DNA of 64,000 nt from an uncultured Spirochaetaceae bacterium (GCA_964565565.1 CAZMFM010000003.1:37774-101773); one strand, 5' to 3'; shown: positions 47,320 through 63,585, counted from the first letter of the stretch. Made by a program: numbers and translations. Notes: a model not told the origin generated them from the letters alone.

Positions 47320-48573
47320 TCACCGCGCACTCGCCTCTGCGTCGGGCGCGATCAAACCATGGACCCATGCGTAGGCTTCGTGCTCGATTCGGGAGAGTTC
47401 TGTGAAATCGAGATGCCAGCGCTCCAGATCGTCCTCGAACTTCTCGACCTGACTGCGCTCGACCGCCTCGGCCAAGGTCAACAACTCGCCCAATTCACCC
47501 TCATGGTGGGTCAATGCCCTCGCAACCTCGTCGCTCAGGCAAAGCTCCTGAACGAGGTCTTCGATCGACCGGCCGAGCAAGGCGTCGGCCAGGGACAACA
47601 TTCCCACGAGAAAGGCACGCTCTCGTTGGGCGTCGCCCTCGCCTGCTGAAGCATTCTGACTGATCACCAGTTCCATCAAACGACCGCGATGGGCCGCCGT
47701 CGTGAGCAAGGGGCTACGAAGATCTGCACCATCGTCTTGCGCATAGAGCAGAATCGAAACCCATCGCGCCAGATGCTGAAGGCCCAGATGCCGAACCGCA
47801 TCGTCGATCGATTCCAGGCGAACGCGAGCCGACTTTCCGGCCGTGTTCACGATCCGCAATAGATTGAGGCTGAGCTTCGCATCCTGCTTGAAGCTGTCGA
47901 CGATCACGCGGGATTCCGCCTCGGCCGAAATCTGCTGAAGGAGCTGTATCAGGGTCGTCTTGGCGGCATCGAGGTCCTTGCCTTCGAGCACGATCGGGCG
48001 CGCAAAATAGTATCCCTGGAAGCGGTCGAAACCCAAGCGATGACAGGTTTCGAATTCCTTGGCGGTCTCGACTTTCTCGGCCAGAAGGAGCAGATCGTGC
48101 TCGCGAAGCGAACGAACCAACCTACGCAGTTCTTTACTTGGAATCGCCGGAAGATCGACCTTCACGATCTCCGAGAAGGGCAGCAGTGGCGCGCGGGGAT
48201 CGTCGACGATCCAATCGTCGAGGGCGATCCGGAAGCCAGCTTCGGTCAGCGCCCGACAGCGTGCGATGACCTCCTCATCCGGTTCGACATCTTCGAGCAC
48301 CTCGATCACCACCCGATCGCGAGGCAACGCCTCGATCGCATCGGACAGCAGGACCTCCCTGTTCACATTGAAGAAACCGTCTGACTGGCCCAGCACCGCT
48401 TCCATTCCCATCGATGCAAAAGTATTGACCATCACGCGAACCGCAGCGCGTCCGACTTCGTCGAAATCAGCCACCTGCGCGTTTCGCGAGCTGCGAAAGA
48501 GCAACTCATAGGCAACCACATGCTGATTCCGATCAACGATCGGCTGACGTCCAATGAAGGCTCCCTGACTCAA
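47320..48573 (-). CDS. EAL + HDOD domain signalling protein (c-di-GMP related, YuxH-like)
   Basis: GRQPIVDRNQHVVAYELLFR.., ..VVIEVLEDV.., ..KVDL.., ..LLAEKVET..FQGYYFARP.., then the HDOD region. Confidence 0.85.
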   Translation of the reverse strand: MSQGAFIGRQPIVDRNQHVVAYELLFRSSRNAQVADFDEVGRAAVRVMVNTFASMGMEAVLGQSDGFFNVNREVLLSDAIEALPRDRVVIEVLEDVEPDEEVIARCRALTEAGFRIALDDWIVDDPRAPLLPFSEIVKVDLPAIPSKELRRLVRSLREHDLLLLAEKVETAKEFETCHRLGFDRFQGYYFARPIVLEGKDLDAAKTTLIQLLQQISAEAESRVIVDSFKQDAKLSLNLLRIVNTAGKSARVRLESIDDAVRHLGLQHLARWVSILLYAQDDGADLRSPLLTTAAHRGRLMELVISQNASAGEGDAQRERAFLVGMLSLADALLGRSIEDLVQELCLSDEVARALTHHEGELGELLTLAEAVERSQVEKFEDDLERWHLDFTELSRIEHEAYAWVHGLIAPDAEASAR

Positions 48574-48706: not shown

Positions 48707-49654
48707 TCAGGGTTCGCAGGGAGGTTCGTAGGGAGGCTCGTCGCGAAGGCCCACGTTCTTCGGAAAATCCTGCGAGACGCGCAGTGTGAACGCAGGTGGC
48801 CGCTTCTCGAGGAAGCTCATCACACCTTCGCGACTGTCCGCGCGTGCACCCATATAGTTGATCGCGGCCGAATCGAGTCGATGTGCGTCCATCGGATGCG
48901 AAGCGCCTAGCATCTGCCACATCATCTGCCTGGAGAGTGCGACGGAAACCGAACTCGTATTCTGCGCAATTTCGAGCGCCAATTCCCTCGCTCGAGGCAG
49001 CAGCCCATCCGCCGACAGGATCTCTGAAACCAGGCCACCTCGAAGCGCTTCGTCGGCATCGAAGACGCGACCGGTCGCCACCCATTCCATCGCCCGGTTG
49101 ATTCCCACGACCCGCGGTAGAAACCAACTGCTGCACGCCTCGGGAACAACGCCACGTCGCGCAAACACGAAACCAAATCGCGCTGCGCTACTCGCCAATC
49201 GAATATCCATCGGCAGAATCGAGGTCACGCCGACACCCACAGCGGGCCCATTCACAGCGGCGATCAACGGCTTCAGGCTGCGATAGATCCGAAGCGTCAC
49301 CATGCCGCCTACATCGCGGGGCTCCGCGGCATCCTGACCACCGGCTTCGTCACTGGCATGGCTCGGATCGAAGGTCGCGCCGCCGGAACTCAAATCGGCC
49401 CCTGCACAGAAGCCCCGCCCCGCACCCGTCACGATCACGGCACGGACGGAGTCATCGCCGTCCGCATCGTCGAGGACCGTGAACCAGTCCCTGGCCATTT
49501 GCATCGTGAACGCATTCAATTTCTCGGGACGATTCAGCGTGATCGTCATGACACCGTCCGATTTGTCGACCAACATCGTCTTCAAGGTGCCGTCCGACTC
49601 GTCCCCTGTCGTCTCGCCCCGCCGCTTGCCTGCCTGCTCCGTTTTTCCCGCCAT
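48707..49654 (-). CDS. Enoyl-CoA hydratase/isomerase (crotonase) family protein
   Basis: ..ITLNRPEKLNAF..VIVTGAGRGFCAGADL..IAAVNGPAVGVG.. I chose the start at ATG 49654 (GGGAGAG upstream); ATG 49660 is equally possible. The track ORF extension to 50077 overlaps the opposite-strand yfcE-like gene. Confidence 0.85.
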   Translation of the reverse strand: MAGKTEQAGKRRGETTGDESDGTLKTMLVDKSDGVMTITLNRPEKLNAFTMQMARDWFTVLDDADGDDSVRAVIVTGAGRGFCAGADLSSGGATFDPSHASDEAGGQDAAEPRDVGGMVTLRIYRSLKPLIAAVNGPAVGVGVTSILPMDIRLASSAARFGFVFARRGVVPEACSSWFLPRVVGINRAMEWVATGRVFDADEALRGGLVSEILSADGLLPRARELALEIAQNTSSVSVALSRQMMWQMLGASHPMDAHRLDSAAINYMGARADSREGVMSFLEKRPPAFTLRVSQDFPKNVGLRDEPPYEPPCEP

Positions 49655-49748
49655 GCTCATCTCTCCCGATTCCGTGAACGACTCAAATTTTCGAGACCGC
49701 ACTCTAGCGTGCCGCCAGAGCGAGCCGACGACGTGATAGCATTCCTCG

Positions 49749-50237
49749 ATGCGAATTGGCGTCGTCAGCGACACGCACGATCGATTGATGAACGTGGAAC
49801 GAATAGTCGATCTATTCAATGAGACGGGGGTCGAGCGGGTCATCCACACCGGAGATCTCACGAAGACCGCTGTGCTCGAGGAATTTGCGAGACTCGAAGC
49901 GCCGCTCTTCGGTGTATTCGGGAACAACGACATTCCCGACCACCCGCGCCTGGAGATGGATGCTAGGCGACTCGGTCTGAATTTCGTCTTGCCACCGCGC
50001 ACGCTCGAATGGGCCGGCCGGCGCATTCTCGTGCTCCACGACCCGGAAGACTCGGCGGCGAATTGGTCGGAAGACATCGACCTCGTCCTTCACGGCCATA
50101 CCCATCGCCATCGGCACGAACAACAAGGCGAGACCCTGATCTTCAATCCCGGCGAATGCGCCGGATTCATGTCCGGACACAACGCAATCGGCTTGATCGA
50201 CCTGGTGTCCCTCGAAGCCGAGCGGCTACTTTTTTGA
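49749..50237 (+). CDS. Metallophosphoesterase, YfcE/MJ0936 family
   Basis: MRIGVVSDTHD..VIHTGDL..GNND..LHGHTH. Confidence 0.85.
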   Translation: MRIGVVSDTHDRLMNVERIVDLFNETGVERVIHTGDLTKTAVLEEFARLEAPLFGVFGNNDIPDHPRLEMDARRLGLNFVLPPRTLEWAGRRILVLHDPEDSAANWSEDIDLVLHGHTHRHRHEQQGETLIFNPGECAGFMSGHNAIGLIDLVSLEAERLLF

Positions 50238-50325: not shown

Positions 50326-51894
50326 ATGCAGAACACCATGAGCTGGAAATCCGAAGTCGATGAAATCGAAGCGCGCAGGGAGGCCGCCCGGGCCATGGGC
50401 GGACCCGAATCCGTCGAACGCCAGCATGCTCGCGGACGACTCACGATCCGTGAACGACTCGACCGACTGGTCGACGACGGCAGCCTCGAAGAGCAGGGAC
50501 CCATCGCCGGCGAGGCCGAACGCGACGAAGAAGGTCGCGTCACGGCCTTCTACCCGGCCAACTACCTGCTCGGACTGGCGACGATCGATGGCCGGCCAAT
50601 CGTCGTGGGCGGTGAGGACTTCACGCAACGAGGCGGCTCGCCTTCCCCGGCCGGTTTGCGACGCAGTGTCTATGCCGAAACCCTGGCGATCGATCTACGC
50701 GTCCCGCTCGTGCGTTTTCTCGAAGGCGGCGGCGGAAGTGTCGCCGGCTCTGGTGGAAAGACGGGCCAACCGCGCATGGCCGGTGACCCGGTCTTCACGC
50801 CCTCTCGCTTCCTCTCGATCGCCCAGGTCATGAAGATCGTTCCCGTGGCTTCAGCCGCCGTCGGGGCGGTCGCTGGCTTCCCCGCCGCACGCTTGGCCGC
50901 TTCGCATTTCTCTGTCATGACACGCGACACCGCGCAGATCCTGATCGGTGGTCCCGCCCTCGTCGAGCGTGCACTGGGCGAGAAACTGACCAAGCAAGAA
51001 CTTGGCGGAGCAAAGATCCACACCCGTTCGGGCGTCGTCGACAACGTCGCCAAGGACGAAAACGACGCAATCGATCAGATGCGGCGTTTCCTTTCGTATC
51101 TGCCGACGAACGTGCTCACGCTTCCCCCCTGCGAAGAAAACCCGAGCGATGATCCCGAGCGTCGGGCCGAGGAGTTACTCGACATCATTCCCCGGGAGCG
51201 CCGGCAGGTCTACGCGATGCGCAAAATCATCAAGGCCATCTTCGACCGGGAGAGCTTCTTTGAAATGACCAAGGGATATGGGCGTAGCCAGATCACGGGG
51301 CTGGCCCGACTGGCCGGACACCCGGTCGGCCTATTGGCCAACGATCCCCATTTCTATGCCGGATCGATGGATGCCGAAGGCGCCCAGAAGGTCCGCCGCT
51401 TCGTCGAGTTCTGCGACACCTTTCATCTTCCGCTGATCAGTCTCGTCGACGAACCCGGCTTCATGATCGGTTCCGCGTCTGAACAGGCCGGGACGATTCG
51501 CTATGGCGTTGAAGCCATTGCGGCCGTCGTCACCAGCCGTGTTCCCTGGTGCACCGTCATGGTGCGCAAGGCCTATGGGGTCGCGGCCGCCGCACATTTC
51601 GGACCACGGGGCCATGTGCTCGCCTGGCCCTCCGCGGAATCTGGCGCGCTACCGATCGAAGGCGGCGTGGCCGTCGCATTTCGTCGCGAGATCGCAGCGG
51701 CGGATGACCCCGACGCCAAGCGCGCCGAATTGGAAGAAGCCTTCGCGGCCCGACGCAGTCCATTCCCGCGTGCGGAGTCGTTTTCGGTTCACGACCTCAT
51801 CGATCCCCGCGAGACGCGCTCGCGTCTCTGTCGTTGGCTAGGCCATGTCTGGCCCCTTCTGAGCGAGCAGATCCCGACGCGGCTGCCGAGTTGA
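50326..51894 (+). CDS. Acyl-CoA carboxylase carboxyltransferase subunit (PccB/MccB-like)
   Basis: ..RGRLTIRERLDRLVD.GS..E.., ..VVGGEDFTQRGGS.., ..LGGAKIHTRSGVVDNVAKDE..A...R.FLSYLP.. and the second CT repeat. Confidence 0.85.
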   Translation: MQNTMSWKSEVDEIEARREAARAMGGPESVERQHARGRLTIRERLDRLVDDGSLEEQGPIAGEAERDEEGRVTAFYPANYLLGLATIDGRPIVVGGEDFTQRGGSPSPAGLRRSVYAETLAIDLRVPLVRFLEGGGGSVAGSGGKTGQPRMAGDPVFTPSRFLSIAQVMKIVPVASAAVGAVAGFPAARLAASHFSVMTRDTAQILIGGPALVERALGEKLTKQELGGAKIHTRSGVVDNVAKDENDAIDQMRRFLSYLPTNVLTLPPCEENPSDDPERRAEELLDIIPRERRQVYAMRKIIKAIFDRESFFEMTKGYGRSQITGLARLAGHPVGLLANDPHFYAGSMDAEGAQKVRRFVEFCDTFHLPLISLVDEPGFMIGSASEQAGTIRYGVEAIAAVVTSRVPWCTVMVRKAYGVAAAAHFGPRGHVLAWPSAESGALPIEGGVAVAFRREIAAADDPDAKRAELEEAFAARRSPFPRAESFSVHDLIDPRETRSRLCRWLGHVWPLLSEQIPTRLPS

Positions 51895-51928
51895 AACGAT
51901 TCAAAAGGAGCGTTTCCGAGCGAACTGC

Positions 51929-52921
51929 TCAGTCGCAGCGCCGACCGATCACCTGACCGAGCCTCAATGTCTCACCGACGGGTCGGGGTTCGAGTTGGCA
52001 AAGCCCCGGCGGTGTCAGCATGACGATCGTCGAGCCGAACTCGAAATGGCCCCACTGCTCGCCCCGTTCGAAGCCGGGGACATGATCTCCTATTTCTCGG
52101 TGTTCCGGCCGTCGATGGCCAAGATTCGAAGTCAGGTCGTCAAAGGACAAATGGATACTGCCGACCATGGTCGCGCCGACGGCGACGAGTGCGATTTCGG
52201 CCGACTCCAGCTCCGGCTCCCGCCCACCGCCGGTCGCGCCCGCCCCAACATCGAAGTAGGCGCAGATTCGTTCATTGCGCGCAAAAAGCCGATCGACTCC
52301 TCGCAGCCCGATGGCATTGACCGGCCAGAGCGACCCGGGAAAATAGTCGACCCGACGGAAGCGCCCGGCCAAGGGTGTATGAAAACGATGATAGTCGCGC
52401 GGGGACAAATAGAAGGTGGCGAAGGAGCCGCCCTCGTACCGACGTGCTAGATCCTCGTCGGCCAGAAACTCGGCGACCGCATAACGCCGCCCTTTGACCT
52501 GAAGAAGCAGCCCGCGCTCGATTCGACCGGCCTCTCCCCAGGCGCCATCACACGGAGAAACCAGACAGCGCGAGTCGCCATCGATCGGCCGCGCGCCATC
52601 CCGCAACGCACGGGTGAAGAACTGCTGAAGCGAGTCGTGGAACTCGATCGGCTCCTTCGCCTCGGATAGATCCACCCCCGCCACGCGTGCAAAAAGCTTG
52701 ATCTCGAATCGCTGCAGGGGACCCGGCAAATGGCGTGAAGCGATCCAGCCCGCAATCCGAGAAATTCCATTCTTCGGCAACACGTAGAGCAATGCGAGCA
52801 GCAAGCGCGCTAGGCCCGAGAGCGGCAAACCCTGCTCATCCCCATGTCGTTGTGGATCCACCTCCAGAGAAGCTGGAGAAAGCGATGAAGATTGATCTTC
52901 GGGTGCGCCGGGGTCTGCCAT
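51929..52921 (-). CDS. psd: Phosphatidylserine decarboxylase proenzyme
   Basis: ..SPCDG.., ..FYLSPRDYHRFH.P.. and the self-cleavage motif ..GHFEFGSTIV... Start chosen at ATG 52921. Confidence 0.9.
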   Translation of the reverse strand: MADPGAPEDQSSSLSPASLEVDPQRHGDEQGLPLSGLARLLLALLYVLPKNGISRIAGWIASRHLPGPLQRFEIKLFARVAGVDLSEAKEPIEFHDSLQQFFTRALRDGARPIDGDSRCLVSPCDGAWGEAGRIERGLLLQVKGRRYAVAEFLADEDLARRYEGGSFATFYLSPRDYHRFHTPLAGRFRRVDYFPGSLWPVNAIGLRGVDRLFARNERICAYFDVGAGATGGGREPELESAEIALVAVGATMVGSIHLSFDDLTSNLGHRRPEHREIGDHVPGFERGEQWGHFEFGSTIVMLTPPGLCQLEPRPVGETLRLGQVIGRRCD

Positions 52922-52941
52922 TCGCGATAGGATAACGTGAA

Positions 52942-54804
52942 TTGGGAGGACAAGCGGGATTGGATGAGACAACGCCAATAGAGCCAAGCGCCCTGGCTTC
53001 GGACGACGAGGATCAACTCCTCGGCACGCTGCTCGATGACCGCTATGAGATCCAGCAATCCCTCGATCGCGGCGGAATGGGAACCGTCTATCTAGCCTGG
53101 GACGCCAAGCTCGAACGCAAGGTCGTGGTTAAGATTCCGCACGCGCGTCTGATGACAGATCGCACCTTCCGACTGCGATTTCTGCAGGAAATTCGCGATC
53201 TCGCCAATCATGAGCATCCCGCGATTCTTCGCATCGAAGGCTCGGGCTCTCATGGCGATGTCCCCTATGCCGTCGTGCAATATCTGCGTGGAGGGAATCT
53301 TCGCGAACGCATCACTGCACAGGGCGGGCAGGAAACGCCGAGCCAGATCCTTGAATGGCTTCCGACTGTGGCCGATGCCCTCGACACCGTTCATCGAAAC
53401 GGCTCGCTCCATCGCGACGTCAAGCCAGCCAATATCCTCTTCGATGAACGGGGCAATGCGGTGCTCTCTGATTTCGGAATCGCAACCGCGATCGGGGCCG
53501 CCGATCCGGACGCGCCTACCCAGGCCGTTCAACAAGAACTGACGGTCGTAGGCACTTTCATCGGATCCCCGGCCTACGCCCCACCCGAAGCCATCGATCG
53601 CCTGCTCACCCCCGCCTACGACCAATACAGCCTGGCGACGGTTGTCTATCTCGCCGTCACCGGCGAGCTGCCATTCAGCGGGCAGACCAACGAAGCCATC
53701 CTGATCGCCAAAGAACGGGACGCACCCCCACCGATCGACCACAAACGACTGAAGGCGCCACTATCGAGATCGTCCGAGAAGGCGATCATGAAAGCGCTGT
53801 CGCGTCGGCCGGAAGATCGTTTCGAAAGCTGCAGTGCGTTCGCCAAGGCCTTCGGCGAAAATGGTGCAGCAGCCGACTCGAATCTACCCTGGGCCAAGAT
53901 CGCGACGGCCGTCGCCACACTCGCCCTCGTCGGGCTAGCCGCGACTCAGATCGAATGGCCTCGAAGTACATCCTCGCCCGCCATGCCCGCCGCCTCGTCG
54001 GCCAGCTACGAAGCGACCTCTCCGAAGACAGGCCAAGAGACCGCTCTCGCCAAGACAATCTCGAGCGCACCCATCACGGTAGAACTCGGCAGCCGCCCCG
54101 ACGAGATCGATCGCGCGGTCACGATCTGCAAACGAGGTGGAGGCATCGGCCAGGACTGCGCGCGCGAAGTATTCGCCGATGAGCGACTGCGAACCGTCAC
54201 TCTACGCCCCTTCACCATCGATCAACATGAAGTCACCAACGCAGACTTCGCTCGATTCTCCGAACAAGCGAACTACGTCTCGACAGCGGAGGTACGCGGC
54301 TACAGCTGGGACATAACGAAATGTCGCGGTTGCAGCTGGAGAAACCCGCGACCCGGCCAGACCATTTTGGATCGCACCGACGACCCCGTCGTCCATGTTT
54401 CCTGGGCCGATAGCCAGGCGTATTGCGATTGGGCTGGATCGCGCCTGCCCTCGGAGGACGAATGGGAACTCGCCGCCCGTGGCGAGGCGCGGCGAACCTA
54501 TCCATGGGGCGATCAATGGGATCAGGCGCGCGTTCGCGACCTCGACGCGAAGGGCATCGGACTCGAACCTGTAGGCTCCCATCCTGAGGGCGCGACGCCA
54601 GAGGGTGTTCAGGATCTCGCCGGCAGCGTGTGGGAATGGACGTCGACGGCCAGCCCGTCCGGCGACCGACAAATCTTCAAGGGCGGATCATGGGTGGAAC
54701 GAAATCCCGCCTATCTACGATCCGCCGCATTCTCCGAAGAAGCCGCGGAGTATTCGAGCATCTCGCTCGGGTTTCGTTGCGCGCGAGACGTCTCGCCCCG
54801 CTGA
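52942..54804 (+). CDS. Receptor Ser/Thr protein kinase with extracytoplasmic FGE-sulfatase (SUMF1-like) domain
   Basis: Kinase motifs GGMGTVYLA..VVVKI, HRDVKPANILF, DFGIA and SPAYAPPE. One TM segment (WAKIATAVATLALVGLAATQI). FGE-type domain (VVHVSWADSQAYCDWAGSRLPSEDEWELAARG..YPWG..WEWT..KGGSW..GFRCARD). The only in-frame start candidates are TTG 52942 and TTG 52960. Confidence 0.85.
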   Translation: MGGQAGLDETTPIEPSALASDDEDQLLGTLLDDRYEIQQSLDRGGMGTVYLAWDAKLERKVVVKIPHARLMTDRTFRLRFLQEIRDLANHEHPAILRIEGSGSHGDVPYAVVQYLRGGNLRERITAQGGQETPSQILEWLPTVADALDTVHRNGSLHRDVKPANILFDERGNAVLSDFGIATAIGAADPDAPTQAVQQELTVVGTFIGSPAYAPPEAIDRLLTPAYDQYSLATVVYLAVTGELPFSGQTNEAILIAKERDAPPPIDHKRLKAPLSRSSEKAIMKALSRRPEDRFESCSAFAKAFGENGAAADSNLPWAKIATAVATLALVGLAATQIEWPRSTSSPAMPAASSASYEATSPKTGQETALAKTISSAPITVELGSRPDEIDRAVTICKRGGGIGQDCAREVFADERLRTVTLRPFTIDQHEVTNADFARFSEQANYVSTAEVRGYSWDITKCRGCSWRNPRPGQTILDRTDDPVVHVSWADSQAYCDWAGSRLPSEDEWELAARGEARRTYPWGDQWDQARVRDLDAKGIGLEPVGSHPEGATPEGVQDLAGSVWEWTSTASPSGDRQIFKGGSWVERNPAYLRSAAFSEEAAEYSSISLGFRCARDVSPR

Positions 54805-54859
54805 ATCTAGTCTCGATTGAGCGAAACCGAGTGCTCGCCCCGCCCGGCGTCGGAACCGC

Positions 54860-55894
54860 CTATCGAAGCGGTGTGAACTCCACTCGCCGATTCATCTGCC
54901 GCGCATAGTCGGATTCATCCTGCATCAGTGGATGCGTCTCACCCATTGCCTCGACCTCGAGCCGGTCCGCATCGATGCCACCGGTCTCGATCAAGTAGTC
55001 GCGAACCGATTCTGCCCGGCGTCCAGAGAGCCCCATATTGTGTTGTTCCGAGCCACGGGCGTCGGTATGGCCGGCGACCTTGAAGCGCATCCCTCGAAGT
55101 TTTGGATCCTCGAGTGCTCGGGCGAATTCGTCGACATTGCGTCGGGCGGCGGCGTCGAGGTCGAATGAGTTCGTCTGGAATTGAATTTGCAAGTCCAGCT
55201 TTGCGGGTCGAATCGAGCGCGTCCGCTCCCCGAAGAAGCCAACGATATCCGCCGACCGATACTGAACGGACCCGCGGCCATCGACCTGCTGCGCAACCTG
55301 GGCGACACGGAACTCACCCGACGCCCGCGACGCGAGAATCCGGGACAGCTGCTGCGCAAAGGCCGGAGCCTGGTGCGGTTCAAAGGAAACAACAATGTCG
55401 GTGCTCTCGATCCCAAGATCTGCTCGGGTGATCGGCTTGTTTGTCACGATCGCATAGACCAGGTCGCGACCAATCGGAGGCTGCACGGTCAGATGAAAAC
55501 CGTCGCTGGCCGACGGAAGGCGAATCGCCTGGCCCGAACGGACGAGCCCCGCTTCGACATCCGACCGCGGGTAGAGCAAGGTGGCCGATCCATGCGTATC
55601 GATGTGAATCGCCGCCAGGTACCCGGGGCGAGATGATTCGAATCGATAGACCAATTGGTCCCCGATTCTCAGCGGCTGACCGCCACCCTCGTTGACGAGA
55701 ACCCGAACCGAATCATCATCCTCTCGTGCCAGCAACGCATCGAGTAGCTCAAGCGTCTCGTCACGGGGCCCCGCGCTCGCCTGCGAAGTTGTCCCAATCA
55801 GTGTCATCAGAGTGAAGAGCACCGCGGACAACATGATCAAGCCGGGCGTCGATATCAGGCTGCTGACCGTTCCTGCCGAACCTTGATTCATCAT
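54860..55894 (-). CDS. DUF4384 domain + OmpA-family peptidoglycan-binding protein
   Basis: Signal peptide. DUF4384-like ..PLRIGDQLVYRFESSRPGYLAAIHIDTHGSATLLYP... OmpA C-like ..IQFQTNSFDLD..FKVAGHTDARGSEQHNMGLSGRRAESVRDYL... ATG 55894 overlaps the upstream stop (ATGA). Confidence 0.8.
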   Translation of the reverse strand: MMNQGSAGTVSSLISTPGLIMLSAVLFTLMTLIGTTSQASAGPRDETLELLDALLAREDDDSVRVLVNEGGGQPLRIGDQLVYRFESSRPGYLAAIHIDTHGSATLLYPRSDVEAGLVRSGQAIRLPSASDGFHLTVQPPIGRDLVYAIVTNKPITRADLGIESTDIVVSFEPHQAPAFAQQLSRILASRASGEFRVAQVAQQVDGRGSVQYRSADIVGFFGERTRSIRPAKLDLQIQFQTNSFDLDAAARRNVDEFARALEDPKLRGMRFKVAGHTDARGSEQHNMGLSGRRAESVRDYLIETGGIDADRLEVEAMGETHPLMQDESDYARQMNRRVEFTPLR

Positions 55895-57207
55895 ATTAGT
55901 TTCCGTAGTCGAACCGTCCCGCGCACGCGCGCCAGACAGGCCAGTCGGTATTTTTTCGGATCCGGAACAACTTGCTCCGTGATTTGAATCGTCCTCATTT
56001 CGCCAGTTGCCGGATCGGGCGGATCCAACCGATCTGCCCCCTCGACGACACCCATTACACAAACACCACAACCACCATCACCGCATTCCCAGTCTACGGG
56101 CTCTCCCCTCGCCAACCCGGCCTCTTGAACCGCCTCGAGAATCGTCTGACCCATTGTGGCCTCGAGGGAATGAGACGTCCCCTCAGCATCCAGCACGAGC
56201 AGACACTTCCCTGCCTCGAGATCCGCTTCGGCCGAGCCGAGGCCGAGGCCGTGCTCCGACACGATCGTCGCATCAGAGGGAATCTCGGATGGATCAGTGA
56301 CCCCACCCCCCGGATCGCCATTGTCTTCCTCGATGATTCCAGTTCCGTGGTCGCGACGTGTTGCGGGTTGGACAGGTTCGATGTCCCGCCGATCGAAACG
56401 ACGGCCGAGGCGTCGAAGCCGAGCACCGAGCCCGAGCGAGCGTCGCGGCTCGTCTAGTTGTGCCCCGACGGGTGCTCCGGGTTCCACAGTGATCAAAACG
56501 GTCGCATCCTCGTCGAGATCGTCGCCACTTCGCGCCACTGGAGCGGCCTCGATCCCTGTATCCGTTTCGAAGGCTTTCGCTTGTGCACCCCCGCGCACAA
56601 CTACCCGGAAGCGATTGGCGGACAGCCTGAACTCGCCACCTGGAGTGAGCGTCTCCATCTCCGACAACTTCAGATACGTCCCGTTATGCGCACCTCGGTC
56701 ATAGAGCCGCAAACCGTCGCCTTCGGGCATGAGCTGTGCGTGCCGTCGTGAGAGCCGAAGATCCTCAGCGTCGAGAATCAGGTCCGAGTCGCGGCCAACG
56801 AAGAGGCCCCGGGCTGGTACCCGATAGCTTTCCAGACGCTGACCATCCGGTCCGTGATGGTGAATCTCCCATCGCACGCCCGCTGCTTCCTCTTGCCGCT
56901 GGAAGATGAGGATCTGGGCCCCCAGCCAGACCTGGTCGCCGGAACGAAGCAAGCGCCCTGCACTGCCTTTGATTCGCAGCCAGACGCCCGACCCCTTGCC
57001 TGAGTCAGCGATCGTAATCTTGTTTCCGACAAAGCTGAGTCGCGCGTGACGATCCGCCATCGCCGTATCATCGGGGCAGGCAAACCCGTCACCAACTCGA
57101 CCGATCTCGAGCTCGCCTTGTTCGAGGATGACCTCCCGAGCCACCGATTCGTCGCGGGTCAGCAGTTGAAGCACATGCGGCAAAACAGACAAATCCTTCA
57201 CTCGCAA
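55891..57207 (-). CDS. Tandem FHA-domain protein fused to a plant-type [2Fe-2S] ferredoxin-like domain
   Basis: FHA1 (..LEIGRVGD..ADRHARLSF..ITIADSGKGSGVWL..). FHA2 (..LFVGRDSDLIL..LSRRHAQL..LYDRGAHNGTYL..). C-terminal C-x4-C-x2-C...C (WECGDGGCGVCVMGV ... RLACLARV). TTG start at 57207. Confidence 0.75.
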   Translation of the reverse strand: MRVKDLSVLPHVLQLLTRDESVAREVILEQGELEIGRVGDGFACPDDTAMADRHARLSFVGNKITIADSGKGSGVWLRIKGSAGRLLRSGDQVWLGAQILIFQRQEEAAGVRWEIHHHGPDGQRLESYRVPARGLFVGRDSDLILDAEDLRLSRRHAQLMPEGDGLRLYDRGAHNGTYLKLSEMETLTPGGEFRLSANRFRVVVRGGAQAKAFETDTGIEAAPVARSGDDLDEDATVLITVEPGAPVGAQLDEPRRSLGLGARLRRLGRRFDRRDIEPVQPATRRDHGTGIIEEDNGDPGGGVTDPSEIPSDATIVSEHGLGLGSAEADLEAGKCLLVLDAEGTSHSLEATMGQTILEAVQEAGLARGEPVDWECGDGGCGVCVMGVVEGADRLDPPDPATGEMRTIQITEQVVPDPKKYRLACLARVRGTVRLRKLI

Positions 57208-57321
57208 CTCCCATCAAGACAAGCAACGCGACCTAATACACGGTCAGCCTGACAGCAACGCCGACGCCTCCCTGGTTCGACCACCGCGACGCGCATCACT
57301 TCCCCCGCACTCCTGAATGCC

Positions 57322-58107
57322 TCAAGCGCCACTCAGTGTAGAGAATGCCCAGGCGACTATTCCAATCAAGATCACGGCGCCAACGAACAGGCCCGCCTTG
57401 CCGAAACGGCCGAGGTCGAACGTCGTCGAATCCGTGAAGCCCTCTGCGACCGTAACCGCGGCCACTGTCTTGCGATCAAGACCCTCTGTGACGCAACGCA
57501 AATGATCCTGACCGAGGATGAGATTCATGCCAACCTCGAGGACGACCGGCTCTGCCACCGGCTCCCCATCGATCAGAACCGACCTGCCCGTCGCCGGGGT
57601 CAGAACCCAATCGCCGCTTTCACTTCCCGCGATCAGCGCATGATCCCGCGAAGCCGAGACCGTATAGAGTCGAATATCACTGTCTTCTGCGCGACCAAGT
57701 GAGACCCTCCAATGAGTGGCGTCGAGCCGCAATCGCTCACCACGGCCTAACGACGGTTCGATGCGCTCGAGCAACATCGGGCGCAAGGAAGAGCTCGGGG
57801 CGATCGGAGCGCTGGGTGCGGGATCGCCGGGGGACGCCGCAATCAGATTATCGGTGGCCTCGGGGTCGGGTTCCGACTCTTGGGGAACCGACGAGACGAC
57901 CGTCTCGTCTTCGTCGAGTGAGACGCTTGGCGGCGGCGCACCACCCCAGGTTGTCGTATCGGAGCGCCCGGCAACGCCCGAGTGCATTTCTCCGGAAGAC
58001 CGCTGTCCTTGGCTAACGGGAATCGATTGTGTCGGAGCCTCGAGCGGATCGCCCGAGTCACCCTTGGGCTTCGTCGCCGCGTCTCGAGTCCCATCATCCG
58101 ATGTCAT
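57322..58107 (-). CDS. Tail-anchored FHA-domain protein
   Basis: Disordered Pro/Ser/Asp-rich N-terminus, FHA (..VSLGRAEDSDIRL..SRDHALI..VLIDGEP..) and a C-terminal TM segment (AGLFVGAVILIGIVAWAF). ATG 58107 is preceded by GGAGG. Confidence 0.75.
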   Translation of the reverse strand: MTSDDGTRDAATKPKGDSGDPLEAPTQSIPVSQGQRSSGEMHSGVAGRSDTTTWGGAPPPSVSLDEDETVVSSVPQESEPDPEATDNLIAASPGDPAPSAPIAPSSSLRPMLLERIEPSLGRGERLRLDATHWRVSLGRAEDSDIRLYTVSASRDHALIAGSESGDWVLTPATGRSVLIDGEPVAEPVVLEVGMNLILGQDHLRCVTEGLDRKTVAAVTVAEGFTDSTTFDLGRFGKAGLFVGAVILIGIVAWAFSTLSGA

Positions 58108-58360
58108 CCTGCCTCCCCGGGCTTCGTAGAATCCAGCGCAATCCCAGAAACGAGCGCTGGGCATCTCGTGAATGAACTCGAAAATGAAAAAGTCGAACAA
58201 ACTTGCACACGCAACTCTTCCGCAGAGTCCGTGGCAATCAAACGATTCCCGATCTCTTTCTGCAAGGGCAACGATAATTCATGGCGGCAGCGAATTCAGC
58301 CACCGCCTTCGAAGCGTCAAGCGCCCCTAACGAATGGCCGATCTCCGAGGCAGATAAGCC

Positions 58361-60310
58361 ATGAGAACCTCCAAGTCGAAATCTAGAAAGCCGCGCCCGC
58401 GAACCCGCGCGACGGCGAAATCTGGTGTGTCCGCCAAGCGACGACTGCGTCCGGCGACCGCAGGGGTGAATCGAAAGCACGCTTCGCGAACCCAAACGCA
58501 TTCGCGCCTGCGCTCGATCGACGGCCGGCATCCCCTGCAGAAAGCGGTCCCGAGTGCAGTCGTGCCCTATCCAGCGAAGCGACGACGCGACAGCGAGATC
58601 GCCTTCTTCAATTTCGATCTCGCGCGAACGATCGGCCTGCTGCCACGGAGCCACCCCGACAAACTAGACGCTTCTCTCAGACAAGCGCTGCTCGATACAT
58701 TCAGCCTCGTGATCGTCAACGAATGGGACGAAGCGCACGGCAATCAGCCCCGGGCGCGGGACCGACAAACACATGCCTACATGGCGACGCGATACCTGCA
58801 ACTACAACACCCGGATAAACGAGGCCTCAATTCAGGTGATGGACGAAGTATCTGGAACGGTATCCTGCGTGGCCGCGCGGGCAGCTTCGACATTTCGAGC
58901 TGCGGTACGGGTGTCACGAAGCTCTGCCCGGCGACCTCCGCCGAGGGGCGCTTCTTCAAGACAGGCAACGCCATCTCCGACTATGGCTGCGGGACTGCCC
59001 ACATCGACGAAGGCATCGGCGCCGCCCTGATGAGTGAGGCCTTTGCGCGAAACGGAATTGCGACCGAACGCGTCCTCGCCGTTCTTTCCTTACCTAACGG
59101 CCAGGCGATCAACGTCCGTGTCGCCCCGAACCTACTTCGACCCTCTCATTTCTTTGGATTGCTTCGTCGTCGAATGGACGAGGATCTGCGTCAATGTGTC
59201 CTCTACTACGCTGACCGCGAGATTCGCGATGGGCGATGGCCGGCCATGGCGAGTGATGACAAGAAAATTCGCTATTTGACTGAACGCGTTTCGCTCGATT
59301 TCGCGCGCGCGACGGCGATGTTCGAAAACGAGTACATCTTCTGCTGGCTCGACTGGGACGGCGACAACGTGCTCTGTGATGGCAGCATCATCGACTACGG
59401 ATCAATTCGACAGTTCGGGCTCTACCACCACGATTACCGATTTGCTGATACCGATCGTATGTCCACATCGATCCCAGAGCAGAAACGAAAGGCGCGACAG
59501 ATCGTTCAACGGTTCATTCAGATTCGCGAGCTTCTGCTCACCGGAAATCGCCCGGCCCTTTCGACGCTGAAAAACGACGCGGCACTCGACCGCTTCGACG
59601 AGGAATTCGAGATCCACAAGCGTCGCCTCTTCCTGCGCCAGATCGGCTTCGACGAGAAGACCGCGGAAAAGATTCGCATCGCCGAGCCGCTCGGTCTCGA
59701 AACGCTGCTTCAGCTACACAATCGGCTCGAACGGACCCGCTCAACCGTGGGTCGGCGCCCGGTCGCCGATGGTTTGTCATGGAACGCCGTTTATTGCATG
59801 CGTGACATTCTTCGAGAGCTACCGGGCAAACTTCTGGACTGCAATCGCGAAGGGCGATCGCGACTTACGCCCGTAGCCTTCTACGAAATCGCATTGTCTC
59901 ATTACGCTTCGCGGAAGGACAAACGTCTGACTCCCTACCGTCGGCAACTCGCCGCCCGCTACCAGCGCGCCTACCTCCAAGTGATGAACTGGGTCGCCGC
60001 GCACAAACGGCGCACCCTGCGAACCGTTCTCGAAGACATCGCCCCGCGAGCCGTTCGCCGAAATCCCTTCGTACGTATGACCGGGGACGGGCTCACTCAT
60101 GCGACCCGGCGCCTCACGACGAATCGCAGACGCCTCGAAGTTGAAGAGACCTATCGGCTGATCCAGGCCTTCGCGGACTCCCAGCAACGCGAGGAGACCC
60201 CGACTTCGCCGTTGAACTTCATCGACACCATCGCGACTGAGCGAAAACTCGTCCAACGCATCCACCACGACATGCAGGATCTCGCTCGCGACTACCGCGA
60301 AGGCCTCTGA
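58361..60310 (+). CDS. Divergent SelO/YdiU-like (UPF0061, protein-AMPylase pseudokinase fold) protein with polybasic N-terminal extension
   Basis: Blocks alignable by eye to E. coli YdiU / human SELENOO: AFFNFDLARTIGLLP, GDGRSIW, GTGVT, IDEG..LMSEAFARNGIATERVL, RPSHFF, and WDGDNVLCDGSIIDYGSI (compare TDNMSILGLTIDYGPF, same D-N..D spacing). The first ~60 residues are Arg/Lys/Ser/Thr-rich. Confidence 0.6.
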   Translation: MRTSKSKSRKPRPRTRATAKSGVSAKRRLRPATAGVNRKHASRTQTHSRLRSIDGRHPLQKAVPSAVVPYPAKRRRDSEIAFFNFDLARTIGLLPRSHPDKLDASLRQALLDTFSLVIVNEWDEAHGNQPRARDRQTHAYMATRYLQLQHPDKRGLNSGDGRSIWNGILRGRAGSFDISSCGTGVTKLCPATSAEGRFFKTGNAISDYGCGTAHIDEGIGAALMSEAFARNGIATERVLAVLSLPNGQAINVRVAPNLLRPSHFFGLLRRRMDEDLRQCVLYYADREIRDGRWPAMASDDKKIRYLTERVSLDFARATAMFENEYIFCWLDWDGDNVLCDGSIIDYGSIRQFGLYHHDYRFADTDRMSTSIPEQKRKARQIVQRFIQIRELLLTGNRPALSTLKNDAALDRFDEEFEIHKRRLFLRQIGFDEKTAEKIRIAEPLGLETLLQLHNRLERTRSTVGRRPVADGLSWNAVYCMRDILRELPGKLLDCNREGRSRLTPVAFYEIALSHYASRKDKRLTPYRRQLAARYQRAYLQVMNWVAAHKRRTLRTVLEDIAPRAVRRNPFVRMTGDGLTHATRRLTTNRRRLEVEETYRLIQAFADSQQREETPTSPLNFIDTIATERKLVQRIHHDMQDLARDYREGL

Positions 60311-60386
60311 CCGGCTCCTGAACTCCATCGGCCGAGTGCGTTGTTTTGGACTCGAACGACCCTCTTATTTCAAATTTTTTGCCAGT

Positions 60387-60402
60387 CGTGACCCAGGTCA
60401 CG
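60387..60402. promoter_or_regulatory. 16-nt inverted repeat CGTGACC-CA-GGTCACG following a T-rich tract (candidate protein-binding site or short hairpin)
   Basis: Read directly. Lies about 77 nt downstream of the SelO-like stop, preceded by tatttcaaattttttgcc. Confidence 0.25.
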
Positions 60403-60510
60403 GAATCTAGACCGCTTCCGACGGATACATAGGAGGCAACTCTGAAGCAGTCCAAGCGTCCCCCCAAAACCGACCGGGCGCCTGGCCACGAGTTCTAGAG
60501 GTCGAAAATC

Positions 60511-60612
60511 TTGGACGAGATCAGCATCACGATCGCCTTTGCCCTGCTGGCCCTCACCTGGCTCACGCTGCGGGGCATGGACGGGCGCGCGCGCCGACGC
60601 ACCCGGCGCTGA
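60511..60612 (+). CDS. Candidate 33-aa small membrane protein (speculative)
   Basis: TTG 60511 is preceded by GAGG. The translation LDEISITIAFALLALTWLTLRGMDGRARRRTRR is one hydrophobic helix plus an Arg-rich tail. It is below the ORF-track size cutoff and lies in a 551-nt gap upstream of the MMPL gene. Confidence 0.15.
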   Translation: MDEISITIAFALLALTWLTLRGMDGRARRRTRR

Positions 60613-60861
60613 ACGACGACGCACGACTACACACGACTTCGCACGCAACACACAGAACGCGTCGAGAGCGTAGGACGTACGAGTTCCAGATTCCCAGGCG
60701 AAGTTCTTGGGAAAGGCCTCGATCTCCTCCACCCGCCCGATGCTTTGTTCCCCGGCCAATGACCAGATCCCAGGCGCCAACTGCTTCGGCCTCCCCTATG
60801 TTCTGGCTCCCCAAAACGAAGACCGCCTGCGAGCGCGAGCGTCCATCCAGAAGCCAGGGAA

Positions 60862-63585
60862 ATGAACGAACCGCTCCAAAGGATCCTCACCCCAATTCTT
60901 CAGCGCTGGCTCGGGTTCATCAGCAAGAATCCGGCGCGGGCCTCCGTCGTCTGCCTCGTCGCAACGCTCGGCGCACTGGTCTACGCCTTCCTGAATCTCG
61001 GGATCAACTCGGACAATCTGAGTTTGATCTCGAAGGACTTGCCGTCGCGTAAGAATCAGGCGGCCTTCGCTGAAATTTTCCCGAATCTCGAAGAAGCCAT
61101 CCTGATCGTCGTCGATGGCGACACGCCGGCCCTGGCACGTGACGTCACAAATCAACTAGCGGAACGACTCAAGGAAATGGACGACGCGTTCAAGGACGTC
61201 TACGTCCCGGGCGGTGGATCCTTCTTCGAAGAACATGCGCTGCTTTACCTGACGGCCGACGAACTCGATCGCCTGGGCGACGACCTCGCCGCCTTGCAGC
61301 CCGTCATCGCGAGCCTCGAGGCCGATCCCAGCCTCGTGAAGCTCGCGGAACTCGTCCGCGTCGGACTCGAAGCGGAAGAAGACAACGACATCGATGCCGA
61401 TCGCTGGGCACCGCTACTCGACGAGGTCGCCAATGCCACCGTGGCGGCCTACGCCGAGTATCCCATCCCCGTCTCGTGGGAGGAGATGTTGGTCTCGGGG
61501 TCGGACCTGGAAATTCCGACCCGGCGCGTGATCGTCGTCGACCCGCGGCTGGACTACGACAAGATTCTGGTTGCCGGTTCCTCGATTGCGGCGATCGAAG
61601 GCGCCATGGCCGATCTCGGTATCGACCAATTGGCCGGCGTCAAGATTCGCCTGACCGGCAACCCAGCCCTCAACCACGAAGAGATGTTGGGACTGGCCTG
61701 GGACATCGGCGGCTCGGGTGTCTTCTGCTTTTTGTTGGTCGCGGGTTTTCTCTATTTCGCCTTTCGGTCCTGGCATCTCGTGGTCGCCTCGCTCGTCACG
61801 CTCCTGGTCGGATTGATCTGGACGGCCGCCTTCGCCGCAGCCACGATCGGTCAGCTCAACATCATTTCAATCGCCTTTGCGATTCTCTTCATCGGCCTGG
61901 GCGTCGACTTCGCGATTCATTTCGGGATGGCGTTTGCGGCCGAACGCCGAGACCATCACGTTCCAAATCTCGTCGCACTGCGAACCGCCGTAGACGGCAT
62001 CGGGGCGTCCCTCGTGCTCTGCGGGTTCACGACCGCGATCGGCTTTCTCGTCTTCGTGCCCACCGAATACCGCGGCATCGCGGAACTCGGTGCGATCGCC
62101 GGGGCCGGCATGTTCATCATTCTTTTCCTGACGCTGACGCTATTCCCTGCGTTGCTCCTGGGTTGGCTACAACCGCCGGAGGCCACCGCCATCCAGGCGC
62201 CTTTCCGAATCGACCAGGCTCTAGCGCTCCGCCTTGGCAAGGCCCCGCGACTCATCTGCGTCATCGCGCTCCTCGCCGCCATGCTGTCGGTTCCGCTTCT
62301 CTTCCAACTGCGATTCGACGCGCACGTGATCAAGATGAGGAATCCCGACACACCGTCGGTACAGGCCTTCCAAGATCTTCTGGCGGATCAAGACACGTCG
62401 CCCTGGTACGTCAACATCCTGACGCCGAACCTTGGTGAAGTCGATGCAATGGTCGAACAGCTCGACGCGCTGCCCGAGGTCGGAAGAATCGTCAGTCTGC
62501 GCAGCTACGTCCCCGACAATCAGGACGAAAAGCTGGAGATCCTCGATGACCTCGCTTTCCTGATGGAGGCCGCGCCTCGCGATCCCAAGGGCGCGCCAGA
62601 ATACGACGCACGAGAGCAAACCGAGGCGTTGCGCGAACTTCTCGCGGCGCTGCACGACGCCGAACGACCGTTCGATGACCAGACGACTTCCCGAAGCTTC
62701 GATGCACTGGAGCAGAAGCTGTCGAATTTTCTCGCGCGCCTGGAACAGGACGAGAACCCCGATCGGGCCCTGGACGGATTCCGTGACGTTCTACTCGACC
62801 GGCTTCCCGAGGCACTCGAGCGCTTCCGAAATTCCCTGGTGGTCTCGCCGATTGAACTCTCGAGCCTACCCCCGGTACTGGTTCGTCGACTCCTGGCGCC
62901 GGACGGCACCGCTCGCATCCAGGCCTTTCCTGCGGAAGAACTGCAAGATTTCGAAGCCCTCAAGCGCTTCTCGAAAAGTGTGCTCGGGGTGGCTCCTCTA
63001 GCGGCCGGGATGGCTCCCCATCTGGTCGACTTCGGCGAGGCGACCGCGCGTTCGTTTCAACAGGCTTTGTTGAGCGCCGCCATCGCAATCTCGGCCCTGC
63101 TCTTCCTACTCTGGCGGCGGCCCTCTGATGTCGCCCTGGTACTGGCGCCCCTTACGCTCGGCGCGATTCTCACATGCGCGTCCATGGCCGCCCTGGATCT
63201 GCGTTTCAACTTTGCCAATATCGTGGTGTTGCCTCTGCTCTTCGGAATTGGCGTCGATTCGGGTATCCATCTCGTTCATCGCGCACGGCAGGATGCGAAA
63301 GCGCAGCTCGGAGGGGCGGCGGAATCCTCGGAATCATTGGTGGAAACGGCGACCGCCGGAGCCGTTTTCTATAGCGCGATGACCACCACACTCTCGTTTG
63401 GCACGCTCGCCCTCTCGGGCCATCAAGGCATGCACTCCCTCGGCATCATCCTGACGATCGGAATGTTCTGGAACATCGTCGCCAACCTGGTCGTGCTACC
63501 GGCCTTGCTCTCGCTCACCGGTGTTTCTGCGCGCACCTCAGGGCACATCGCCAAATCAGATCCAGGCGTCGCCGGCTCCGCATAA
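60862..63585 (+). CDS. MMPL/RND-superfamily exporter, HpnN-like
   Basis: 907 aa with two blocks of about six TM helices, each preceded by a large soluble loop. The N-terminus (..ISKNPARASVVCLVATLGALVYAFLNLGINSDNLSLISKDLPSRKNQ..) is typical of HpnN-type transporters. Confidence 0.8.
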   Translation: MNEPLQRILTPILQRWLGFISKNPARASVVCLVATLGALVYAFLNLGINSDNLSLISKDLPSRKNQAAFAEIFPNLEEAILIVVDGDTPALARDVTNQLAERLKEMDDAFKDVYVPGGGSFFEEHALLYLTADELDRLGDDLAALQPVIASLEADPSLVKLAELVRVGLEAEEDNDIDADRWAPLLDEVANATVAAYAEYPIPVSWEEMLVSGSDLEIPTRRVIVVDPRLDYDKILVAGSSIAAIEGAMADLGIDQLAGVKIRLTGNPALNHEEMLGLAWDIGGSGVFCFLLVAGFLYFAFRSWHLVVASLVTLLVGLIWTAAFAAATIGQLNIISIAFAILFIGLGVDFAIHFGMAFAAERRDHHVPNLVALRTAVDGIGASLVLCGFTTAIGFLVFVPTEYRGIAELGAIAGAGMFIILFLTLTLFPALLLGWLQPPEATAIQAPFRIDQALALRLGKAPRLICVIALLAAMLSVPLLFQLRFDAHVIKMRNPDTPSVQAFQDLLADQDTSPWYVNILTPNLGEVDAMVEQLDALPEVGRIVSLRSYVPDNQDEKLEILDDLAFLMEAAPRDPKGAPEYDAREQTEALRELLAALHDAERPFDDQTTSRSFDALEQKLSNFLARLEQDENPDRALDGFRDVLLDRLPEALERFRNSLVVSPIELSSLPPVLVRRLLAPDGTARIQAFPAEELQDFEALKRFSKSVLGVAPLAAGMAPHLVDFGEATARSFQQALLSAAIAISALLFLLWRRPSDVALVLAPLTLGAILTCASMAALDLRFNFANIVVLPLLFGIGVDSGIHLVHRARQDAKAQLGGAAESSESLVETATAGAVFYSAMTTTLSFGTLALSGHQGMHSLGIILTIGMFWNIVANLVVLPALLSLTGVSARTSGHIAKSDPGVAGSA

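Follow-up and report, generated by a model that had tools for sequence, protein, structure and literature searches.

The five-gene locus

We analyzed a 64-kb stretch of DNA from an uncultured Spirochaetaceae bacterium (the whole stretch is hereafter called the window), in which five neighboring genes at positions 52942-60310 had been proposed, on the sequence alone, to form an undescribed envelope signaling system. In order along the window, they encode a single-pass receptor Ser/Thr kinase (52942-54804, plus strand), a periplasmic DUF4384-OmpA protein (54860-55894, minus strand), a cytoplasmic FHA-FHA-[2Fe-2S] protein (FHA-FHA-Fer2; 55891-57207, minus strand), a tail-anchored FHA protein (FHA-TM; 57322-58107, minus strand), and a divergent SelO/YdiU-family nucleotidyltransferase-like protein (SelO-like; 58361-60310, plus strand). 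As argued below, we lean toward reading the kinase and the three minus-strand genes as a clade-restricted Hanks-kinase/FHA signaling module of an ordinary kind, and the SelO-like gene as an independent neighbor.

All five open reading frames (ORFs) were found exactly at the coordinates given by the sequence-only reading, and the gaps and overlaps it described were also confirmed. The gene calls of an identical public contig (L090, GCA_006243105.1) have the same starts and give 614 aa for the kinase, 344 aa for DUF4384-OmpA, 436 aa for FHA-FHA-Fer2, and 261 aa for FHA-TM. The kinase and DUF4384-OmpA genes converge with a gap of 55 nt (54805-54859, checked on the sequence). The stop codon of the FHA-FHA-Fer2 gene overlaps the start codon of the DUF4384-OmpA gene in an ATGA (55891-55894), and the two FHA genes are separated by 114 nt (57208-57321). 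The divergent region between the FHA-TM and SelO-like genes, which has no strand of its own, spans 253 nt (58108-58360), and both starts that flank it are preceded by Shine-Dalgarno-like GGAGG/GAGG sequences.

Then, 38 ORFs of the window were scanned with profiles for PP2C, kinase, and FHA domains. Beyond the cluster itself, the scan turned up no kinase or FHA gene in the 64 kb, and the remaining scanned genes are metabolic and housekeeping. The module is supported by this distribution, since the sole kinase gene and the sole two FHA genes found in the window all sit within 5.2 kb. No PP2C phosphatase was present among the ORFs scanned, in agreement with the sequence-only reading. The G+C content at third codon positions is 0.62-0.68 in the cluster genes, slightly lower than in the flanks (0.70-0.76), a difference too small to argue for horizontal acquisition of the cluster.

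The receptor kinase and the DUF4384-OmpA protein

Four of the five proteins passed the profile-HMM check against Pfam, with the domains that had been assigned to them. In the kinase, for which the gene caller sets the start at 52960, the matches are Pkinase (8.8e-36; 124 bits against a cut-off of 31.7) at about 53044-53841 and FGE-sulfatase (7.6e-45; 154 bits) at about 54178-54786. Hydropathy places one transmembrane segment between the two domains (about 53884-53952), so that the FGE-sulfatase-like domain is expected in the periplasm. The residues K58, H151-R-D153, N158, D171-F-G, and the activation-loop L-T..G are invariant in five kinase orthologues, and the activation loop reads ELTVVGT. 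By these residues, the protein belongs to the Hanks-type (eukaryote-like) Ser/Thr kinases, and its cytoplasmic domain is predicted to be catalytically complete.

The ectodomain has the FGE fold, but it is not a catalytic formylglycine-generating enzyme: no Cys was found in the KGGSW...P.Y.RSAAF segment in any of the five orthologues, and the KGGSW...RSAAF region is where we take the paired cysteines of FGE to be expected. Without the cysteine pair, the ectodomain is therefore better read as a binding or sensing domain than as an enzyme.

The DUF4384-OmpA protein, encoded last in the minus-strand set, matches OmpA (4.5e-23; 81.9 bits against a cut-off of 27.2) at 54887-55180 and DUF4384 (2.1e-17) at 55433-55672. 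The GHTD...LSxRRA residues of the OmpA domain are conserved in four orthologues, and the N-terminus (55769-55894) carries a hydrophobic, signal-like segment ending in ASA|G by hydropathy, with no lipobox Cys. Score, contact residues, and export signal together indicate a predicted OmpA-like peptidoglycan-binding domain on an exported protein.

Two published observations bear on the pairing of these genes. In an atlas of bacterial Ser/Thr kinases (STKs), the family Proteo1 is described with a C-terminal domain that is either FGE-sulfatase or DUF4384 (10.1101/2025.01.12.632604), and orthocaspases bear the same two accessory domains (PMC7475262). This recurrent association suggests that the FGE ectodomain of the kinase is functionally tied to the neighboring DUF4384 protein.

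The two FHA proteins

In FHA-FHA-Fer2, Pfam recognizes two Yop-YscD_cpl/FHA domains (6e-12 and 2.4e-11) and a Fer2 domain (1.3e-6; 28.7 bits against a cut-off of 21). The first FHA domain (FHA-1, 56893-57138) is degenerate, having Ala in place of Ser and no Asn. Conversely, the GR, SRRH, and NG residues of the second (FHA-2, about 56593-56829) are invariant in 20 family members, and FHA-2 thus carries, as far as residues can tell, everything expected for phosphothreonine binding. The Fer2 domain (55924-56184) is a plant-type [2Fe-2S] ferredoxin domain by score and by its four Cys (C-x4-C-x2-C-x40-C), which are invariant in the same 20 members at 45-70% identity, and cluster binding is predicted. 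AlphaFold2 (AF2) modeled the tandem FHA domains at a predicted local distance difference test (pLDDT) value above 90; Foldseek matched them to the FHA domains of GarA, OdhI, and FhaA, and the ferredoxin part to the Rhodobacter capsulatus ferredoxin FdC (5.5e-4). The family comprises only 68 clusters, all inside one clade of Myxococcota metagenome-assembled genomes (MAGs), and no FHA-ferredoxin fusion was found described in the open-access literature searched.

Residues ~257-268 of FHA-FHA-Fer2 form an invariant basic motif, GLGARLRRLGR, in an otherwise disordered linker; AF2 models it as a helix, which may serve for docking to the membrane or to a partner. Two distant matches to the FHA pair (P0182 and P0188) were rejected as homologues of the locus, being FHA-FHA proteins fused to a flavin oxidoreductase, encoded beside multihaem cytochromes, and having no synteny with it. 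The same tandem FHA architecture, with a flavin oxidoreductase (Pyr_redox_2/3) replacing the ferredoxin, occurs in genes for proteins of ~765 aa at L007:10001-12304 and L009:10001-12286, which adjoin multihaem cytochrome genes and represent a second FHA-redox fusion theme.

FHA-TM, the first gene product of the minus-strand set, consists of a disordered Ser/Thr/Pro-rich N-terminus (57733-58107), an FHA domain (57511-57705; Pfam 2.7e-7), and a C-terminal transmembrane segment (57334-57396; residues 238-258 of 261), with a hydropathy maximum of 2.38 at residues 232-261. Hydropathy therefore agrees with the topology that had been assigned to this tail anchor and to the kinase.

Both FHA proteins carry an acidic Thr motif in a disordered region. 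In FHA-TM it is DEDETVV (57895-57915), which recurs in most orthologue N-termini; in FHA-FHA-Fer2 it is DEDATVL, within the linker (56494-56511). Of 20 FHA-FHA-Fer2 linkers, 11 contain the motif [DE]xxT[VL][VLI] (DEDATVL/EEATVL), whereas only 2.9% of shuffled sequences do, an enrichment that is inflated by shared ancestry. Coherently with the TVV of the kinase loop, the Thr of these acidic-T-V-V/L motifs are plausible candidate phospho-acceptor and FHA-docking sites.

Conservation of the locus

Synteny was assessed from the gene tables of the homologue-bearing contigs and from a tblastn matrix over all clade loci. By its homologues, the window falls within a clade of uncultured Myxococcota MAGs, with the backbone order carboxyltransferase, (MBOAT), phosphatidylserine decarboxylase (PSD), kinase, DUF4384-OmpA, [FHA-FHA-Fer2], [FHA-TM], [SelO-like], [MMPL], CdaA-type cyclase, and glyoxalase. 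All five genes are present in the window, L001/L010, L003, and L011; L013 has the first four, its contig stopping before the SelO-like position. FHA-FHA-Fer2 is an accessory gene, found in about half of the clade genomes and missing from L012, L014, and L006/L015, and FHA-TM is present in most clade members. In L016, the most divergent member (72% GC), the kinase and DUF4384-OmpA genes lie directly beside the cyclase gene, without FHA, SelO-like, or MMPL genes. The kinase and DUF4384-OmpA genes are adjacent and convergent in every clade member, including this one.

Full-length orthologues of DUF4384-OmpA were found in only seven species-level genomes. The contig scan anchored on this protein used patterns inside the OmpA domain, and 73 of the 80 loci retrieved hold unrelated OmpA-domain proteins; the longer matches in L030 and L033 turned out to be PD40-OmpA proteins.

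The ATGA overlap between the FHA-FHA-Fer2 and DUF4384-OmpA genes is kept in every genome with both, L001, L003, and L090 among them, and in L003 a 4-nt overlap joins the two FHA genes as well. These conserved overlaps make the operon of the three minus-strand genes, which the sequence-only reading had recognized, well supported.

Things stand otherwise for the test that this reading had proposed, synteny in unrelated genomes, which the five-gene set fails. The five genes occur together in the single Myxococcota MAG clade only, where the housekeeping flanks (carboxyltransferase, PSD, MMPL, c-di-AMP cyclase, and glyoxalase) are equally collinear. Since the flanks are conserved as well as the cluster, conservation within the clade cannot show functional coupling beyond vertical inheritance. 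A rival explanation is that chance or history alone has placed three unrelated units, namely the kinase, the FHA/OmpA operon, and the SelO-like gene, next to each other in a conserved stretch of envelope and housekeeping genes (PSD, MBOAT, MMPL, and CdaA). Besides the collinearity of the whole backbone and the lack of conservation found outside the clade, it draws on the convergent orientation of the kinase gene, and Myxococcota encode many kinases and FHA proteins. Conversely, three observations speak for more than adjacency: the 64 kb yielded a single kinase gene and two FHA genes, all inside 5.2 kb and functionally matched as writer and readers, the literature links FGE-sulfatase and DUF4384 domains to one kinase family (10.1101/2025.01.12.632604), and the acidic-T-V-V motif is common to both FHA proteins. 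We therefore regard mere adjacency as a real but minor possibility, well behind a kinase/FHA module.

The SelO-like protein

The assignment of the fifth protein to SelO/YdiU was the weakest of the set, but profile and fold comparisons support it. The protein has no Pfam match even at E=10, and its score against NCBIfam YdiU is 30.1 bits against a cut-off of 431, so the thresholds of the curated SelO/YdiU families (PF02696, NF000658) are not reached, although some members of its subfamily have weak precomputed PF02696 matches. Conversely, a profile of 16 homologues matches YdiU/SelO PDB chains at 3.5e-5, and hhalign aligns the protein with Escherichia coli SelO at 95% probability (E 2.6e-8). 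The AF2 model (pLDDT 75.5; predicted template modeling score 0.78) has significant Foldseek matches only to YdiU/SelO (E 2.5e-9 to 7e-8; target-normalized template modeling scores 0.57-0.61), the next matches being ordinary kinases at E above 0.2. The kinase-like core lies at about 58523-59680, with the catalytic D335/N336 at 59363-59368 and the DFG-type D345 at 59393-59395.

The roles of the residues Asn253, Asp262, Arg176, Arg183, Lys113, and Glu136 have been described for Pseudomonas syringae SelO (PMC8097203). The equivalents of the first four (N336, D345, R253, and R260, respectively) are invariant in 275 full-length subfamily members, so that the SelO fold, the metal-binding Asn/Asp, and the two phosphate-binding Arg are all retained. 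The Lys113 equivalent, in an alignment at 15-19% identity, is Cys (171 members), Arg (87), or another residue and never Lys, and the Glu136 equivalent is Ala, Ser, or Thr. The protein is thus a divergent SelO/YdiU relative of a distinct subfamily. Because the metal-binding Asn/Asp and both phosphate-binding Arg are invariant, it looks like an active nucleotidyltransferase rather than a dead one, and the earlier label of pseudokinase is misleading.

Clustered at 50%, the subfamily counts 359 representatives, and its members are spread over Myxococcota, Nitrospirales, Acidobacteriota, Bacteriovoracaceae, and Gammaproteobacteria. NCBI already labels some members "SelO family protein"; neither a "SelO-like" subfamily nor a SelO with FHA was found described in the open-access literature searched. 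Five cysteines (C181, C189, C210, C328, and C479) are invariant or nearly so within the Myxococcota clade, one of them at the canonical lysine position; across the whole subfamily they alternate with Arg, Ser, or Asn and are thus features of the clade and not of the family. A Peptidase_S51 gene directly adjoins the SelO-subfamily gene in two of four distant genomes (L093:7233-7898, Nitrospirales; L095:9809-10474, Bacteriovoracaceae), overlapping it by 4 nt in L095, and may be a real partner of the subfamily.

In the divergent region upstream, a block of ~110 nt directly 5' of the SelO-like start (about 58250-58360) is conserved in close relatives: in an alignment of the window, L001, L003, and L006, the conservation holds between the window and L001 and, in part, L003. 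The block could be a promoter, an operator, or a 5' leader. It has no Rfam match, and the Rfam scan of the region at E<=1 returned a single spurious long noncoding RNA match and nothing else. A scan of 51500-61200 for promoters and terminators gave counts equal to those in shuffled sequences, and a sigma-54 reading of the block was dropped by eye, the -12 GC being absent.

The sequence-only reading had joined all five genes in one phosphothreonine/AMP envelope signaling system, with a redox input from the ferredoxin domain. On such a model, either the kinase or the FHA proteins would be nucleotidylated by the SelO-like enzyme. Some evidence is coherent with such a system. Indeed, the SelO-like gene is divergent from FHA-TM in every clade member that has FHA-TM and whose contig reaches that far, also after loss of the MMPL gene; L016 lacks FHA-TM and SelO-like together; the block 5' of the SelO-like start is conserved; and known SelO members are redox regulated (PMC8097203). 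Nevertheless, partner genes were found beside the SelO-like gene in none of the six contexts outside the collinear clade. Two of these are relatives with homologues at about 50% identity (L004 and L005), in other genomic contexts; the other four are distant members, including Nitrospirales, Acidobacteriota, and Bacteriovoracaceae, in which genes for FHA, kinase, OmpA, or Fer2 proteins are absent up to 8 kb away. The genes upstream of SelO-like in L004 and L005 were tested as cryptic FHA-TM homologues and are not homologous, and L005 has an unrelated kinase gene and a small FHA gene 3-8 kb downstream of its SelO-like gene. Moreover, members of the subfamily occur in several phyla where neither FHA-Fer2 nor DUF4384-OmpA orthologues turned up, and the conservation within the clade is indistinguishable from the collinearity of the backbone. 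A single five-gene system is thus unlikely. The envelope phospho-signaling part of the proposal remains reasonable for the kinase, the two FHA proteins, and DUF4384-OmpA, and the SelO-like protein is the part that falls away.

An extended form of the same idea is more doubtful still: that FHA-FHA-[2Fe-2S] is a redox- or iron-gated phosphothreonine reader coupling the envelope receptor kinase and its peptidoglycan-tethered DUF4384 co-sensor to the redox state of the cell, and that the lysine-less SelO enzyme, in this clade, adds a nucleotidyl mark to the same FHA scaffold, making it a signaling hub at the membrane with two modifications, phosphothreonine and nucleoside monophosphate.

Comparison with known systems

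One close analog is the mycobacterial cell-wall signaling locus PknB/FhaA/FhaB(FipA)/PstP, which likewise has a single-pass Hanks receptor kinase with an extracytoplasmic sensor, two FHA proteins (one membrane anchored), and a connection with the cell wall. Coherently, FHA-TM weakly matches FhaB_Rv0019c, and the structure search retrieved FhaA and GarA, among others. The differences are nonetheless considerable: the ectodomain is FGE-sulfatase-like and not PASTA, no PP2C and no rodA/pbpA are present, the link to the wall is a separate DUF4384-OmpA protein, and one of the FHA proteins has a [2Fe-2S] domain.

The PpkA/Fha1/PppA threonine-phosphorylation pathway of the Pseudomonas aeruginosa H1 type VI secretion system (H1-T6SS) also pairs an FHA reader with a membrane kinase that has a periplasmic domain, accompanied by accessory proteins of the outer envelope, and OmpA-like peptidoglycan anchoring is found in apparatus of this kind (TssL). 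Unlike it, the locus has no T6SS genes or PppA, the ectodomains differ, and there is no sign of a secretion output. More in general, as in STK-FHA-PP2C loci, the kinase and an FHA reader are encoded together, whereas a PP2C and an output machinery (division/wall synthesis or T6SS) are absent, the flanks being PSD, carboxyltransferase, MMPL and, in relatives, CdaA.

Another reading considered was an anti-phage defense or secretion-associated module, built on a defense kinase or on FHA proteins and an OmpA-like anchor of T6SS or type III secretion system type. The PADLOC models PD-T4-6 and mad6 kinase match the kinase, ZorB MotB-domain models match the OmpA domain, and Yop-YscD_cpl matches occur together with weak GltG/TssL-type ones. 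However, the PADLOC matches are generic to these kinase and MotB domains, the FHA and SelO-like proteins have none, and no secretion, motility, mobile-element, or defense genes lie nearby in what is a stable housekeeping backbone with GC similar to the flanks. Both readings were rejected as very improbable.

Among NCBIfam models, FHA-2 of the fusion protein comes closest to OdhI (1.5e-10), in agreement with the Foldseek matches to GarA and OdhI; unlike these, the window protein is a tandem FHA with a ferredoxin, and it has no apparent link to 2-oxoglutarate dehydrogenase. The SelO-like protein shares with SelO/YdiU AMPylases/UMPylases the fold and the invariant Asn253, Asp262, Arg176, and Arg183 equivalents, but it has only 14-19% identity and, at 649 aa against 478 aa for E. 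coli SelO, is ~170 residues longer, including an insert of 17 residues and a tail of basic character at the N-terminus. Moreover, it shows no evidence of the C-terminal Cys/selenocysteine motif, and its Lys113/Glu136 equivalents are replaced. Finally, the kinase resembles the Proteo1 STKs, with their C-terminal transmembrane segment and FGE-sulfatase or DUF4384 domain, a likeness by domain description and not by family assignment; unlike in these, the window splits the FGE domain (kinase) and DUF4384 (the neighbor with the OmpA anchor), an arrangement not described there (10.1101/2025.01.12.632604).

Other genes of the window and its relatives

The PSD gene (51929-52987, minus strand) and the kinase gene are transcribed divergently, their called starts only ~38 nt apart, and this pair is kept throughout the clade, L016 included. 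In L006 and L016 it is joined by an MBOAT gene, and the opposite end of the block is closed by the gene for a CdaA-type c-di-AMP cyclase. Elsewhere in the window, 8033-10309 (plus strand) encodes a 758-aa fusion of a pyridine-nucleotide-disulfide oxidoreductase with AIRS/AIRS_C, a SelD-like (selenophosphate-synthetase-type) architecture. The EAL-HDOD protein at 47320-48573 (minus strand) has a partial EAL match (profile positions 105-236) and may be a degenerate c-di-GMP phosphodiesterase. At 48707-50077 (minus strand), the longest ORF of an enoyl-CoA hydratase has an N-terminal extension of ~150 aa, Ser/Arg-rich and with atypical codon-position GC; the true start is probably internal, and tblastn to relatives spans only ~317 residues.

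A probable kinase/FHA module and its possible working

The analysis establishes the domains and topology signals of these proteins, their catalytic and ligand residues, the translational coupling, and the phyletic pattern; the direction of phosphorylation, the pairing in the periplasm, and the output are inferred. The periplasmic FGE-like domain would sense an envelope cue, possibly jointly with the exported, peptidoglycan-tethered DUF4384-OmpA protein, its likely periplasmic partner or co-sensor. The activated kinase would phosphorylate the Thr of acidic-x-T-V-V/L motifs, both on itself, in the activation loop, and on the disordered stretches of the two FHA proteins, and FHA-TM and the canonical FHA-2 of the fusion protein would dock on these phosphothreonines at the membrane. 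Where a genome carries FHA-FHA-Fer2, its ferredoxin domain may contribute a redox- or iron-sensitive element, and the acidic-Thr motif in a disordered segment of this protein would allow a self-binding switch of the GarA/OdhI type. As for the output, the neighboring envelope genes (PSD, MBOAT, MMPL, and CdaA) are only suggestive.

Several points weigh against a module of this kind. The kinase gene is convergent to the operon and not co-transcribed with it, and no phosphatase was found among the scanned ORFs. The evidence from synteny all comes from one clade, whose flanks are as collinear as the cluster, and no independent lineage confirms even the link among kinase, OmpA, and FHA. Furthermore, L016 retains the kinase and DUF4384-OmpA genes without any FHA gene, and the FHA proteins are therefore not obligatory. 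At the residue level, the FHA domain of FHA-TM has GR and SxxH without the usual Asn, the enrichment of the acidic Thr motif is confounded by shared ancestry, and activation loops of the T-V-V-G-T type are common among Hanks kinases. Regarding the independence of the SelO-like gene, FHA-TM and SelO-like stay adjacent and divergent even after the loss of MMPL (L012 and L014), which leaves a small chance of a local link. Taking these points into account, we still hold a clade-restricted Hanks-kinase/FHA module of an ordinary kind, with the SelO-like gene as an independent neighbor, to be somewhat more probable than all other explanations together.

Implications

The unusual parts of the module are its periplasmic, peptidoglycan-tethered DUF4384 partner and its cytoplasmic FHA-ferredoxin adaptor. 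The locus offers two modest novelties, the fusion of two FHA domains with a ferredoxin and a SelO subfamily in which the catalytic Asp/Asn/Arg are retained but the canonical lysine is not. Neither the proposed module nor this subfamily alters present understanding; the five-gene system is unsupported, and the organisms have not been cultured. SelO chemistry has recently expanded to include AMPylation, UMPylation, and NAD hydrolysis. Given this expansion, the SelO-like subfamily, a widespread group of roughly 600-residue proteins with an invariant catalytic core and an altered nucleotide-phosphate pocket, merits biochemistry.

If the proposed module is true, it would represent a variant of bacterial Ser/Thr-kinase signaling in which the periplasmic sensor is split between an FGE-like domain borne by the kinase and a wall-anchored DUF4384 protein, and its iron-sulfur phosphothreonine reader could link phospho-signaling to redox or iron status. 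It would also give a testable function to two common uncharacterized kinase ectodomains, the FGE-sulfatase-like domain and DUF4384.

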